A DNA stretch of 64,000 nt from Escherichia coli (GCF_016903815.1 NZ_CP069972.1), one strand, 5' to 3'. Counted from the first letter of the stretch, positions 37,160-47,400 are shown. The notes: a model not told the origin generated them from the sequence alone. A program made the numbers and translations.

Positions 37160-37495
37160 TTTCCCGGAGGAGCGAAGCTCCTTCTGCCGTCCGGGTCTTC
37201 GGGGATTTCCCCGCAGTGGACCTTTCCGACGGGGGACGCTCACCACGTCACGGGGCAGTTGTCCGGGGGCAGACGCAAAAGTTTTTGACGCCTGCGGCAA
37301 AAAGTTTTGTGGCTGGTACATCTCTCCCCTGGACGACTGAAACGGGATGTGGTCATGTATGTACCCCCGGAAAGTCCGTCTGCGGAGAACAGGCCGCAGT
37401 GCGGCGGCAGACAGGCAGAGACAGCTGCGCCATCAGGCGCAGTGGCCTTACACACCGTAAGGTGTGCAGGGAGCGCCGCATACGGCGCGACTGAA
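37160..37495 (-). repeat. Family-A GC-rich structured repeat, copy 1 (Frpo/ssi-like single-strand promoter candidate)
   Basis: ~335 bp highly similar to 40553-41055 and 46898-47400; many internal inverted repeats. Confidence 0.6.
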
Positions 37496-37694: not shown

Positions 37695-37946
37695 ATGACC
37701 GGCTGGGAACTGCGAATCTGGCGAAAAAGCATGCTCTGGTCACGCGAAAAAGCGGCCAGAGAATTTGGCGTGACGCAGAGAACATGGCACGCCTGGGAAA
37801 ATGCGGAACAGGTGGACGTCACCGTCTGGAGGACCACCCAGGCACTTTCAGTCCGTGACCTGCTGCCTCACATGCAGGGGATGCGTAAGGCAGATATCAT
37901 CAGGCGACTGGAAAATGAACTGGGGGAAACGGCAGGGAATGTGTGA
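37695..37946 (+). CDS. Small HTH DNA-binding protein (83 aa)
   Basis: HTH-like WSREKAAREFGVTQRTWHAWE; preceded by palindromic operators. Confidence 0.5.
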   Translation: MTGWELRIWRKSMLWSREKAAREFGVTQRTWHAWENAEQVDVTVWRTTQALSVRDLLPHMQGMRKADIIRRLENELGETAGNV

Positions 37947-37976
37947 GCGTGATTCACAGCCTGGCTGAATGCCAGG

Positions 37977-38159
37977 CTACTGCTCATCAGGAAACAGCTT
38001 TTTCAGTTCTTCACCGGAAAGTCCCGTGACCTCCTGAATCCGTTCCAGCGGCCAGCCTATATCCCGAAGCCGGCAGGCTATTTCCCGCGCCACTTCAAGA
38101 GCCCCTTGTTTAAAACCCTCGTCGAAACCTTTCTGTATAAGACGTTCTGCAATCGTCAT
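37977..38159 (-). CDS. Free-standing Rpn tail-domain ORF (RpnS-like, 60 aa)
   Basis: MTIAERLIQKG...TGLSGEELKKLFPDEQ parallels the C-terminal tail of the adjacent Rpn protein; lies after the rpn terminator; SD weak and distant. Confidence 0.45.
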   Translation of the reverse strand: MTIAERLIQKGFDEGFKQGALEVAREIACRLRDIGWPLERIQEVTGLSGEELKKLFPDEQ

Positions 38160-38181
38160 GCTGTTTGCTCTGCTCCTGCTG

Positions 38182-38208
38182 ACAAAAAAGCCCGGCATTT
38201 TGCCGGGC
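38182..38208 (-). terminator. Rho-independent terminator after rpn
   Basis: GCCCGGCA-loop-TGCCGGGC; on - strand followed by T6. Confidence 0.55.
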
Positions 38209-38221
38209 TTTGTGGTTCTCA

Positions 38222-39148
38222 TCAGTGAGTGATTTTCTTCAGTTCGTCATCGGAAAGTCCGGTAGCCTGCTTAATCTGCTCCGGCGTCATCCCCATTTTC
38301 TGAAGCTGGCACGCAATAGCCAGGGCTTTTTCAAGCGCTCCTTCCATGCGTCCTTCCATGCGTCCTTCCATCCTGCCTTCCTGGCGACCTTTTTGCTCAA
38401 GACGTTCTGCGATAGTCATCAGTTTATCCTCATGCTGCGGCAGACGCTCAGCCAGCGCCCGCATAAATTCCGGTGATACAGAGTCCCCTGCGTTAACGAT
38501 GTAATGAATCAGAACACGCACCTGCTCGTCTGAAATTTCCACCATGACCTGCGGGAGTTTGTCCAGCAGCTCCATCATGTCACGATGGCGGATATGCTTC
38601 ATCAGCAGCGTCAGTGCGGCCATCCGGCGATGGTTCATGATTTCATTGTCATCAACGACAGTGATATCAACCAGCGGAAACGGCTTTGTGTATATTTTAG
38701 CCGCAAGTGCCGGATTCTCAAAACAGTCCAGCCAGTTCATGCTGTACGGGTACGGGCTGCGCTCACCGTGATAGAACAGCACCGGAATCACCAGTGGCAA
38801 CGTTTTGTGCTGCTCCAGATGTCTCTGCATCGCCGCCACACTGTAGCGTAACATGCGAAAAGGCATGTACAGATTTTCTGTGCTCTGGTGCTCGATGAGC
38901 GTATAAACATAACCATCTTCACCCCCGGTGGTTTTCACGCTCCAGAGGATATCGCTGGCGTACTGATGCAGGTCCGGCTCAACAAAGGTGGCGGGTTCCA
39001 GCTTCAGCGTGGACAGGTCGCACAACTGCCGGTACTCCGCAGGAAGATGCAGTTCCAGAAAATCCCTGGCAACGTCGGGATTCGCCAGGAACGACCGGAA
39101 CGCGGCATCATGCGGCGTGGGCGTTGTGGTGTTTTTCTTCTTACTCAC
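38222..39148 (-). CDS. Rpn-family (YhgA-like) recombination-promoting nuclease (308 aa, GTG start)
   Basis: GGAGG before GTG; N-terminal domain with ...YVYTLIEHQSTEN... motif; C-terminal tail with (EGRM)3 repeat; internal in-frame ATG 38419 with GAGGA SD. Confidence 0.75.
   Translation of the reverse strand: MSKKKNTTTPTPHDAAFRSFLANPDVARDFLELHLPAEYRQLCDLSTLKLEPATFVEPDLHQYASDILWSVKTTGGEDGYVYTLIEHQSTENLYMPFRMLRYSVAAMQRHLEQHKTLPLVIPVLFYHGERSPYPYSMNWLDCFENPALAAKIYTKPFPLVDITVVDDNEIMNHRRMAALTLLMKHIRHRDMMELLDKLPQVMVEISDEQVRVLIHYIVNAGDSVSPEFMRALAERLPQHEDKLMTIAERLEQKGRQEGRMEGRMEGRMEGALEKALAIACQLQKMGMTPEQIKQATGLSDDELKKITH
38340..38387 (-). repeat. Tandem 12-bp coding repeat (CCTTCCATGCGT x3-4) encoding EGRMEGRMEGRMEG
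   Basis: Direct tandem copies inside the rpn tail. Confidence 0.8.
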
Positions 39149-39534
39149 GGTTCCTCCATCAAATCAGCAGCATCGCAGCAATCATCGCCCAAATCCCCAC
39201 AACCGAGAGGACAGCAATTGCGTTCAAAGCCATGACAACAATAGCCGCGTTCTGAGTCACGGCGTATTTCTTCAGCAATCTCTTCTGCGGAAAGGTAATC
39301 AAACTCCTCACGGGCCAGTTCCAGGACCAGTAGATGTTGTTCTGTCGGCAATGTGGCCACAAAATTATCAATAGCAGCACTCAAACGTCGCTGATATAGC
39401 TCATAAACAAGACCACAACGGGGCATTAGTTCTTCGGATAATAGTTCCAGTTTTGAGCGAATTCTGTCAGCGTTGAAAGTGACTTCATCAAAAGACATAT
39501 GAAAAGCTTTGTCAGTATCAAAACAAGACTTCAT
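39145..39534 (-). CDS. Hypothetical protein with Cys-rich C-terminus, translationally coupled to rpn (129 aa)
   Basis: GGAG before ATG 39534; stop overlaps rpn start (4-nt overlap); CCHGFERNCCPLGCGDLGDDCC tail. Confidence 0.4.
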   Translation of the reverse strand: MKSCFDTDKAFHMSFDEVTFNADRIRSKLELLSEELMPRCGLVYELYQRRLSAAIDNFVATLPTEQHLLVLELAREEFDYLSAEEIAEEIRRDSERGYCCHGFERNCCPLGCGDLGDDCCDAADLMEEP

Positions 39535-39710
39535 TGTTATCTCCAGCCCTCCCGGGCCCTGAATGAAAGAGAATCTGTTTCCCTTTTCTGTTTTTTGTGG
39601 AGACACCATGCAACACAGACGTCGTGATGTTTTTCATCTTGCTCACGGTTCCTCCTGGTAAAGTACCTGAACACATCCTGCCACCTGCACAGGCAGACGG
39701 CAGGGGTTAA

Positions 39711-39977
39711 TCAGTGACAGACCCGTTCAATTTCAAGCGCGCGGAGCAGGTGGCCCCATTCGCTGACTTTCATGGCGGGGATACGTACCCGCTTCTGCTC
39801 ACTGCAGCGTCTGGCGATATGACCGCCCATCGCCAGGACGTCCGGGTTAATCTCATCCGGTGCCAGTTCCTGGCGTCTGAAGCGGGTATGGCGGTGCAGG
39901 GGTTTGTTCTCCCGCAGGCACTCTTCACGCAGACGCTTTACATACTCGGCGGTTGCGAAGATAATTGATGGTCTCAT
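39711..39977 (-). CDS. Hypothetical protein (88 aa)
   Basis: GGAG 9 nt upstream of ATG 39977 (internal to track ORF 39711..40073). Confidence 0.4.
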   Translation of the reverse strand: MRPSIIFATAEYVKRLREECLRENKPLHRHTRFRRQELAPDEINPDVLAMGGHIARRCSEQKRVRIPAMKVSEWGHLLRALEIERVCH

Positions 39978-40069: not shown

Positions 40070-40504
40070 TCATTCCGGACAGCGACGCAGTGCCAGCGCG
40101 AGCGCTTTCATCTTCCAGCCTTCCGGCGTGCGGTACATCACCTTCCAGTAGCCGTCGATGAACACATAATGGAAGCGCACCTCTTCAGTGCTTTCCGTGG
40201 CGATGGCCTCCCTGAAAGAACGGTACTCACGCGCCTCACTGTCCATCCGGAAACCACTGTCACGTCCGTAATAAGCCGTCACACCGTCCACCGGGTTCTG
40301 AAGCGTATGCCCGGCGGGTTTGTCGCAACGGGGACCGAGGCAACGGATATCACCGTGTTCAACCAGGGCTTCGGCCTGCTGACCGGTGGCATAGTGGGTA
40401 TGCAGGATGCGACCGTTCCAGGTCGGCTCACCGTGCAGGTGGCAGTAAACGGTACGGAACACCCCGTCGCGGCAAAAAACGGAAATCGTGCTGCTGACTG
40501 TCAT
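40070..40504 (-). CDS. Hypothetical protein (144 aa)
   Basis: AGGAG before ATG 40504; first gene downstream of repeat A2; His/Cys-containing, no motif recognised. Confidence 0.5.
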   Translation of the reverse strand: MTVSSTISVFCRDGVFRTVYCHLHGEPTWNGRILHTHYATGQQAEALVEHGDIRCLGPRCDKPAGHTLQNPVDGVTAYYGRDSGFRMDSEAREYRSFREAIATESTEEVRFHYVFIDGYWKVMYRTPEGWKMKALALALRRCPE

Positions 40505-40552: not shown

Positions 40553-41055
40553 CCCCCGGAGGGGCGAAAGCCCCTTCTGCCGTCCACTTCTTCGGGGTTT
40601 CTCCCCGCAGTGGACCTTTCCGATGGGGCAGCGACTGCCACGGCACGGGGCAGTTGTCCGGGGGCAGACGCAAAAGTTTTTGACGCTTGCGGCAAAAAGT
40701 TTTGTGGCTGGTACATCTCTCCCCTGGACGGCTGAAACGTGTTGTGGCCGCTTCAGCCCCCGGAAAGTCCACAGCGGGGAAACAGGCCGCAGGGGGGGCG
40801 GCGGAAGGGCAGACAACTGCGCCATCAGGCGCAGTTTCCTTACACACCGTCAGGTGTGCAGGGAGCGCAGGTCACGGCGCGACAGAGGCGGCGCGACCGG
40901 AACGGTCGCTGCAAGCCTGGTTTTTCAGACATCGGACCGTAGCGGCAGCCCGAAACCGCGCCAGCGGGTTCGGCGGAGACTGGCGGGTGCGCCAGCAGCT
41001 GCCTGTCGGAGTCGGGCCTGACGACCGGATGCCGCCAGGCAGCCGGGAGCCGAAG
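40553..41055 (-). repeat. Family-A repeat, copy 2 (Frpo/ssi-like)
   Basis: ~500 bp; near-identical blocks shared with copies 1 and 3. Confidence 0.6.
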
Positions 41056-46897: not shown

Positions 46898-47400
46898 TTC
46901 AGAGGAGCGAAAGCTCCTCCTGCCGTCCACTTCACAGGGGTTTCTCCCCGCAGTGGACCTTTCCGATGGGGGCCCGTTTACCGCCTCACGGGGCAGCTGT
47001 CCGGGGGCGGACGCAAAATTTTTTGCCGGGTTCATGGCTAAAAATTTTGTGGCCGGTGCATCTCACCCTGGACAGATGGAACGGGAGGGGGTTACGTCTG
47101 CCCCCCGGAAAGTCCACAGCGGGGAAACAGGCCGCAGGGGGGGCGGCAGGAGGGAGGACTGCTGCGCCATCAGGCGCAGTTTCCTCACACACCGTCAGGT
47201 GTGCAGGGAGCGCAGGTCACGGCGCGACAGGGGCGGCGCGACCGGAACGGTCGCTGCAAGCCCGGGTTTTCACGCATCGGACCGTAGCGGCAGCCCGAAA
47301 CCGCGCCAGCGGGTTCGGCGGAGACTGGCGGGTGCGCCAGCAGCTGCCCGTCGGAGTCGGGCCTGACGACCGGATGCCGCCAGGCAGCCGGGAGCCGAAG
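46898..47400 (-). repeat. Family-A repeat, copy 3 (Frpo/ssi-like), upstream of ssb
   Basis: ~500 bp near-identical to copy 2; right edge is where the intron begins. Confidence 0.6.

Follow-up and report, generated by a model that had tools for sequence, protein, structure and literature searches.

We describe a group of genes in a 64,000-nucleotide stretch of DNA from Escherichia coli (NZ_CP069972.1, assembly GCF_016903815.1), referred to throughout as the window. The group lies on the strand opposite to the one presented, marked here as −, and comprises a gene for a nuclease of the Rpn family (rpnL), a shorter product predicted to be made from an internal start in the same gene (rpnS), and a free-standing gene whose product resembles the C-terminal tail of the nuclease (rpnSs). 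Upstream, a second copy of the 5′ end of rpnL marks the edge of an insertion or deletion (indel) that carries a gene of the CcgAII family. Cassettes of this kind were described in 2023, and the finding is real but essentially known. What the window may add is the placement of the cassette in a leading-region operon headed by an ssi-like element, the ccgAII indel bounded by rpn 5′ ends, and the near-exclusion of equal repeat numbers between neighbouring proteins.

The gene rpnL occupies positions 38222–39148 (−), begins with GTG and encodes 308 amino acids (aa). The Pfam family Transposase_31 (PF04754, YhgA-like) aligns with residues 11–207 over positions 1–197 of the 203 in the model (E 2.3e-78), which places the N-terminal nuclease domain at 38528–39118 (−). 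On the model TIGR01784 ('Rpn family'), with a curated cut-off of 52.1, the protein reaches 180.4 bits, and PHROG 3300 is matched at E 1e-104; on the RpnA equivalog model it reaches 320.7 bits with a cut-off of 583, making it a member of the Rpn/YhgA-like recombination-promoting nucleases (COG5464) and not RpnA itself. Candidate catalytic residues of a PD-(D/E)XK nuclease, D66 and E86-H-Q88 (in the motif LIEHQS), can be read from the sequence and are retained in all intact relatives. R64-style annotation names the gene ygdB ('transposase_31'), NCBI already annotates it as Rpn family, and 10,385 blocks of public assemblies list the identical protein. Rpn proteins of the long form (RpnL) are toxic endonucleases (Zhong et al., PNAS 2023, PMC10400941), and from its family membership the 308-aa protein is presumed to be such a toxin, acting on DNA.

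Within rpnL, an in-frame ATG (38419–38417, −) is preceded at a distance of seven bases by a GAGGA Shine–Dalgarno sequence (38427–38431, −), from which a 65-aa tail-only product, RpnS (38222–38419, −), would be translated. Related loci were drawn from metagenomes with an exact-match probe (59 loci), from PLSDB (19) and by exact-protein look-up (50). The GAGGA-N7-ATG motif is kept in 114 of 114 of these loci, across two diverged tail types (one of them with the repeat unit IQQG) and despite nearby synonymous changes. A profile built on these tails matches the solved RpnA-S chain 7TH0 over its full length (E 5.5e-9); a single-sequence search of PDB sequences with RpnL did not find RpnA-S, which the tail profile alone detected. 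An array of five four-residue repeats (EQKG-RQEG-RMEG x3; 38339–38398, −) begins at residue 8–12 of the tail, and its perfect part, 38339–38371, is scored by Tandem Repeats Finder as a 12-bp unit in 2.8 copies with 100% matches, giving EGRM three times in the protein. Published work provides a ready comparison: RpnS, made from an internal in-frame start, is the cognate antitoxin of RpnL and forms a bundle of three helices, and the first of them, which is long, bears four-residue repeats in a number that varies between strains; for RpnC, one extra repeat in only one partner abolishes neutralisation (PMC10400941). By homology to RpnA-S, the tail product of the window is presumed to be the cognate intragenic antitoxin. 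Internal transcription start sites have been reported for E. coli rpn genes (PMC10400941), and a promoter-like site inside rpnL (TTGAGA-16-TAAAAT; 38694–38721, −; 10/12 to consensus) is a candidate for driving an RpnS transcript. It is a consensus match only, from a scan that returned 3 sites in the region when 2.1 were expected by chance.

Downstream of rpnL lies rpnSs (37977–38159, −), which encodes a free-standing tail paralogue of 60 aa, the counterpart of ypaA (rpnESs). By BLASTP its product is 51% identical to the 65-aa tail (E 4e-16), and the two have in common an N-terminal segment, MTIAERL.QKG, and a C-terminal one, TGLS.EELKK. RpnSs matches the C-terminal positions 219–273 of TIGR01784 (E 3.4e-7) and PHROG 12274 (E 1.9e-9); the only precomputed match, to PF27070 HTH_Rpn_C, is marked 'faint'. 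In its AlphaFold model (predicted local distance difference test score 76.5) the best Foldseek match in the PDB is again RpnA-S, 7TH0, with a probability of 0.96 and 44% identity. The protein has its own array of three repeats (IQKG-FDEG-FKQG; 38103–38138, −), in frame and variable in number among loci. Between rpnL and rpnSs there is an intrinsic-terminator-like hairpin with a T-run (38184–38211, −; 11-bp stem, −19 to −24 kcal/mol, z −4.06), which is conserved among loci. A simple terminator scan overlooked it because the stem reaches into the T-run, and RNA folding revealed it. A further hairpin (37958–37978; −20.7 kcal/mol, z −4.18) separates rpnSs from the convergent gene ygeA.

The start of rpnSs deserves comment. 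The Prokaryotic Genome Annotation Pipeline gives it 81 aa from an ATG at 38222, overlapping the rpn stop codon and running through the terminator hairpin. Of 112 related loci, 35 have this extension out of frame, a change of 1 nt in the length of the T-run being enough to shift the frame, and the conserved start is therefore the ATG at 38159. Shine–Dalgarno spacing there is poor, with AGGAG 13 nt from the ATG. The stretch just 3′ of rpn is also a site of insertion. In one relative (L122:2192–3291) rpnSs is replaced by a DUF6016 gene and a beta-lactamase, in another (L095:2509–3303) an IS66-family transposase abuts it, and in a third (L049) it is truncated and runs on into unrelated sequence.

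The original prediction, drawn from the nucleotide sequence of the window, had proposed much of this anatomy, and the searches bear it out: an Rpn-like frame of 308 aa, for which similarity to Rpn proteins was found, a 12-bp repeat encoding EGRM three times, an internal ATG at 38419 with GAGGA for a tail-only product, and, after a terminator, a 60-aa frame that parallels the tail and resembles the C-termini of Rpn proteins. It had also proposed a tail swap, and tail swapping between plasmids of this lineage is real. When the window is compared with plasmid LC567060, the nuclease half of RpnL, which is 97–100% identical among plasmids with differing tails, gives way at about 38590 to a segment, extending to 38232, in which sliding identity drops from 0.98–1.0 to 0.38–0.78 (some 40–75%), and identity is restored after the stop codon. 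The exchangeable module (38232–38590, −) thus covers the linker and the RpnS-coding part, and the repeat unit differs across it, EGRM here and IQQG in LC567060. Three tail types occur among the relatives, namely EGRM, IQQG and mixed.

Repeat number varies as freely as tail type. In 122 related loci the RpnS array ranges from 1 to 7 units, every change being a multiple of 12 bp, and the RpnSs array from 1 to 6 units, always in frame; the first 73 loci alone yielded 34 distinct repeat haplotype pairs. The two arrays are almost never of the same length. Equal numbers were found in a single locus (L090, with 3 and 3 units) out of 116 with an intact rpnL, where permutation expects 24.7; counted over distinct haplotypes, one pair in 36 is equal where 6.1 would be expected (P about 0.01). 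Of the six RpnSs length classes, five have no locus with an equal RpnS number and the sixth has only L090, while every RpnSs class co-occurs with RpnS unit numbers both below and above its own. The same gap is found in PLSDB, where a census was made with haplotype-specific queries in one sequence background, with a 3-unit RpnSs, counting records of at least 99% identity. Beside the 3-unit RpnSs, an RpnS of 2 units was found in 252 records, one of 4 units in 282, one of 5 units in 60 and one of 6 units in 86; an RpnS of 3 units was found in 0. Because a 3-unit RpnS is common beside other RpnSs lengths, this state must be mutationally reachable. A query with the natural (4,4) haplotype gave no full-length match in PLSDB. 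The natural haplotype queries replaced a chimeric (3,3) query that was ambiguous, since split alignments conceal gaps, and the census for (2,2) was uninformative, that sequence background being rare in PLSDB. That equal repeat numbers are nearly absent suggests that equal length is selected against; this relation between the repeat numbers of RpnS and RpnSs was not found in the main text of Zhong et al. (PMC10400941).

The only other equal pair, with 4 and 4 units, occurs in two loci of the same haplotype (L016 and L023). In both, the first ~95 codons of rpnL, including the nuclease motifs, have been replaced by an insertion (L016:560–760), and the inserted end in L016 holds inverted-repeat-like sequence (…TGGAGATCACT…AGTGATCTCCA…).

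At the opposite end of rpnL, the functional 5′ end of the gene, consisting of a GGAGGA ribosome-binding site, the GTG and the first ~14 codons (39106–39157, −), recurs as a diverged upstream copy (39604–39655, −). That the ribosome-binding site and first codons recur had been noted in the original prediction; on alignment the direct repeat is longer than was described there, at 52 nt with 79% identity, the copies lying 498 bp apart. A 30-mer with up to 3 mismatches is found at those two places only, and 0 are expected (100 shuffles). Plasmid alignments place the two copies at the edges of a ~498-bp indel (39156–39655, −), the upstream copy forming its left edge and the functional 5′ end the right-hand copy of the repeat. 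The segment is present in LC567081 and absent from LC567060 and MG545910; it is missing from most I-complex plasmids, including a class of matches that covers 82% of the query. About a quarter of the PLSDB records with the cassette have it, and among intact loci 45 are with and 68 without. The 'recombination scar' proposed at this place is a fair description of the duplicated 5′ end.

Inside the indel is an open reading frame (ORF) of 129 aa (39145–39534, −) of the CcgAII family. By tblastn it is 55.6% identical to ccgAII of the IncN plasmid R46 over residues 26–106 and 73% identical to an IncF leading-region ORF; it has no match in Pfam-A or NCBIfam, and in some GenBank records such an ORF is labelled 'cobalamin biosynthesis protein CbiX'. 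Its TGA overlaps the GTG of rpn (GTGA), and its final four codons and stop constitute the rpn ribosome-binding site and GTG (…ATGGAGGAACCGTGA), so that ccgAII is translationally coupled to rpn. A further ORF, of 42 codons (39518–39646, −), opens at the upstream copy of the rpn start and reaches 17 nt into ccgAII. Over its first 40 nt this copy is a 90% match to the start of rpn in plasmids without the insert, and beyond ~70 nt the segment is similar to what natively precedes ccgAII homologues on small plasmids. A search for a donor rpn paralogue found no intact one, those first 40 nt matching nothing but the ordinary start of rpn. On the left side of the upstream copy, 25 nt have likewise diverged between the two allele classes. 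This divergence of the left flank, together with the likeness of the segment to native ccgAII upstream sequence, suggests import from a diverged homologous locus, not a fresh duplication. A third upstream context occurs in two further loci (L010:3000–4200 and L031), where rpn has a somewhat altered initiation region (GGAGGAAAAGTGAG) bordered by other sequence; here too, therefore, the left recombination boundary of the cassette falls at the ribosome-binding site.

Many plasmids of E. coli and Shigella match the 2.5-kb region at 100% identity. PLSDB has 2,081 records with the cassette DNA, and almost all are conjugative plasmids of the MOBP/MPF_I type that belong to the I complex (IncI1, IncK, IncB/O, IncZ). 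In the annotated relative NZ_CP024254, the relaxase and a nikA-type gene stand at the low-coordinate side of the cassette and ardA, psiA, a ParB-like gene and ssb at the high-coordinate side, and the leading-region genes are all on the − strand, pointing towards the origin of transfer (oriT). By this gene order and these strands, the window represents the leading region of a plasmid of the I complex, with the + strand as the template that enters first; the cassette block lies 2.5–4 kb from oriT. A plasmid leading region had been supposed in the original prediction.

Three repeats of ~330 nt, 81–89% identical to one another and resembling the Frpo and ssi elements of conjugative plasmids, are dispersed over the window. 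The middle one (40555–40886, +), a presumed single-strand promoter on the transferred strand, stands directly upstream of ygcA-ygdA-(ccgAII)-rpn and folds as transferred-strand single-stranded DNA (ssDNA) into a long hairpin (−115 kcal/mol, z −8.7). The other two lie at 37163–37494, upstream of the DUF4942 gene ygfB, and at 46902–47228, directly upstream of ssb. In the IncI1 plasmid pESBL, ssi1–3 are active single-strand promoters for zygotically induced operons, and zygotic induction is reported for six operons (PMC12672017). The place of the operon directly downstream of such a repeat makes it plausible, by analogy, that rpn would be expressed early in the recipient.

Around the cassette, the first conserved neighbour upstream of rpn is ygdA (39711–39977, −; 88 aa, from annotation), preceded by ygcA (40070–40504, −; 144 aa; PHROG 1987, E 5e-21), the first gene of the presumed operon. 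On the other side, ygeA (37695–37946, +) encodes an XRE-type helix-turn-helix (HTH) protein of 83 aa (Pfam HTH_31, E 1e-4) and is convergent with rpnSs; NCBIfam has no match for YgdA or YgeA. The block ygdA-rpn-rpnSs-ygeA is also found on an unrelated backbone, the IncFIB/MOBF megaplasmid NZ_CP022118 of Salmonella Macclesfield (L084:1546–3354), with protein identities of 57% for YgdA, 76% for the N-terminal half of Rpn and 86% for YgeA. From this linkage on an unrelated backbone, the HTH gene may belong to the cassette. In the same locus RpnSs and its own RpnS are near-copies, with GRQE-type repeats (6 versus 5 units), which suggests repeated local duplication of the tail. Some annotations in the vicinity are doubtful: in CP088489, CP057977 and other GenBank records ygcA is labelled 'post-segregation killing protein PndC' and a small gene beside oriT 'molybdopterin-guanine dinucleotide biosynthesis protein MobC'. 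Just beyond the ssi-like repeat upstream of ssb, Rfam detects domains D1–D4 of a group II intron (RF02012; 47451–47600, +; 121.8 bits, E 7e-26).

The likeness of the cassette to RpnA–E of E. coli and to RpnP2 extends to the N-terminal nuclease family, the internal start with its own Shine–Dalgarno sequence, the RpnA-S-like tail, the strain-variable four-residue repeats beginning 8–12 residues past the tail methionine, and the possibility of plasmid carriage; by sequence, RpnL of the window differs from chromosomal RpnA in not being its equivalog. The plasmid-borne RpnP2 of strain ECOR13 protects against T-even phages (PMC10400941). It may be the same gene as that of the window, which plasmids of ECOR 3 and ECOR 24 carry. 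Separate tail genes (RpnSs, such as ypaA) follow some rpn genes on chromosomes and plasmids alike, and free-standing RpnESs is made in E. coli (PMC10400941). Like the pairs rpnE-ypaA (rpnESs) and rpnC-rpnCSs, the window has a small ORF directly 3′ of rpn that is homologous to the tail and has its own variable four-residue repeats. In those pairs, however, RpnSs clusters with its own upstream tail, whereas RpnSs of the window is just 51% identical to the neighbouring tail and has the repeat unit GF[DK][EQ] where the tail has EGRM; the near-copy arrangement was seen in the plasmid set only in the distant Salmonella IncFIB relative.

The leading-region setting and the link to ssi repeats are absent from the discussion of Zhong et al. 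(2023). Compared with operons behind Frpo of F and ssi1–3 of ColIb-P9 and pESBL, the arrangement near oriT, on the transferred-strand template and behind a ~330-nt repeat with a long ssDNA hairpin, is similar; ColIb-P9 also has three dispersed ssi elements, as the window has three dispersed repeats with one before ssb, a likeness of arrangement. The usual cargo of such operons is anti-defence or inhibition of the SOS response (ardA, psiB, ssb), in contrast to the toxic nuclease and antitoxin encoded here. CcgAII, the product of a 'CUP-controlled gene' that the IncN plasmids pKM101 and R46 have in their leading region, is related to the 129-aa ORF, which differs in having a Cys- and Asp-rich C-terminal extension, in the use of its final codons as the rpn ribosome-binding site, and in sitting between two copies of the rpn 5′ end. 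A literature search on ygdB or ccgAII found nothing relevant. All of the original interpretation except the scar and the location is already published (PMC10400941).

Taken as a whole, these observations are best explained by an Rpn long/short toxin–antitoxin cassette of I-complex conjugative plasmids, corresponding to ygdB of R64, a reading to which we give a probability of about 0.8. By this account, unopposed RpnL would be toxic as a PD-(D/E)XK DNA endonuclease, and the 65-aa RpnS, translated in the same frame from GAGGA-N7-ATG at 38419, would pair with the identical long helix in the tail of RpnL and block the nuclease. The array of 12-bp, four-residue repeats borne by this helix would be prone to slippage, and its length would fix the register of pairing and hence which RpnS suits which RpnL. 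The gene rpnSs would be a diverged copy of the tail, set past the terminator, with an array of its own that varies independently and is held at a different unit number. The ccgAII-family segment would have lodged between a decayed and a working copy of the rpn 5′ end, leaving ccgAII coupled to rpn, and the whole block, on the strand that enters first and downstream of an ssi/Frpo-like repeat, would probably be transcribed upon entry to the recipient.

Several observations weigh against this account or parts of it. Pfam-A gives no significant match for RpnSs, including DUF4351 (PF14261), which is named as an annotation of such free-standing tail genes, and the PADLOC models (2023) match neither RpnL nor RpnSs. 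The statistic for mismatched repeat numbers is built on related plasmids that were not randomly sampled, and one intact locus of equal length, L090, does exist. As to early expression, read-through from the ssi-like element could be attenuated by a hairpin, lacking a T-run, that stands at about 39660–39700, between ygdA and the ribosome-binding site of rpn; moreover, not all leading-region genes of IncI1 are induced, and the published text names none of the induced ones (PMC12672017).

The role of RpnSs is the part of the cassette on which readings diverge. The original prediction had treated the extra tail gene as part of an antitoxin cassette, and what stands of this is the tail paralogue; a second, redundant antitoxin for the adjacent RpnL it is unlikely to be, and we would put the chance of it decidedly low. 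Homology to the tail, with the terminal segments common to RpnS, speaks for such a role, as does the production of free-standing RpnESs in E. coli (PMC10400941). The unit number of its helix nevertheless differs from that of RpnL and RpnS in 115 of 116 intact loci, and the equal-number combination is absent from the largest PLSDB background. Taken with the published intolerance of RpnC to a single mismatched repeat (PMC10400941), this makes RpnSs an improbable partner for its neighbour, from which it also differs outside the repeats, at only about 51% identity to the tail. More probably RpnSs would be a tail kept in reserve or for exchange, or would partner other Rpn variants. A tentative proposal, which we entertain with the odds somewhat against it, is that RpnSs is a length-coded third component whose unit number is held apart from that of the RpnL/RpnS helix. 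An RpnSs of the same length would then pair with the helix and upset the balance of toxin and antitoxin, for instance by titrating RpnS or locking RpnL off, and the register code could matter at entry, when Rpn variants of plasmid and host first meet. The proposal is consistent with the near-absence of equal pairs, the only recurrent one (4,4) standing beside an rpnL that lacks its 5′ end. If RpnSs instead had no protein function and served as a silent or spare tail cassette, replacing tails by deletion or fusion, the mismatch would be incidental. Exchange of tails between otherwise identical nuclease halves and the poor Shine–Dalgarno spacing are in keeping with this; yet nearly every locus has an intact, in-frame ORF that keeps a conserved ATG and has flanking hairpins of its own, and the missing equal-number class goes unexplained where 2, 4, 5 and 6 units are all common. 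We consider it a somewhat improbable solution. Leading regions are enriched in toxin–antitoxin genes and orphan antitoxins (PMC11541004), and this enrichment, with the location on the transferred-strand template and a variation in RpnSs length as wide as an arms race might produce, would suit an orphan antitoxin directed against foreign Rpn toxins of recipients or rival plasmids, acting as anti-defence on entry. Such a protein should be neutral towards the length of its own RpnL and not avoid it, however, the terminator sets rpnSs apart from the ssi-driven operon, and similar genes follow chromosomal rpnC and rpnE, where there is no conjugative entry; the idea strikes us as quite unlikely.

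Two other alternatives concern the duplicated 5′ end. The upstream copy retains the full GGAGGAACCGTG initiation region, its 42-codon ORF runs 14 nt into ccgAII before it stops, and the stop codon of ccgAII overlaps the GTG of rpn, all of which could make it a functional leader ORF that sets the translation of ccgAII and then of rpn through two successive overlaps. The copy diverges after ~10 codons, though, into a peptide unrelated to Rpn; ccgAII has its own GGAGA-N6-ATG; and most plasmids keep rpn without the whole segment, so that this explanation appears unlikely to us. That rpnL might be a transposase, with the 52-nt direct repeat as its target-site duplication, is invited by the older annotation 'Transposase_31', and we reject it as having hardly any chance of being correct: rpn has no terminal inverted repeats around it, the direct repeat encloses ccgAII and not rpn and is only 79% identical, and Zhong et al. 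report the family to be without evidence of autonomous transposition (PMC10400941).

As a discovery the cassette itself, known since 2023, adds little. Some 2,000 resistance plasmids sequenced from E. coli, Salmonella and Shigella nonetheless carry it, at a place from which the earliest genes are expressed once transfer has taken place. With rpn 5′ ends on either side, the ccgAII indel offers a clean natural example of a cassette rebuilt by recombination at a ribosome-binding site, and the near-absence of equal repeat numbers provides a population-genetic and experimental handle on the role of RpnSs.

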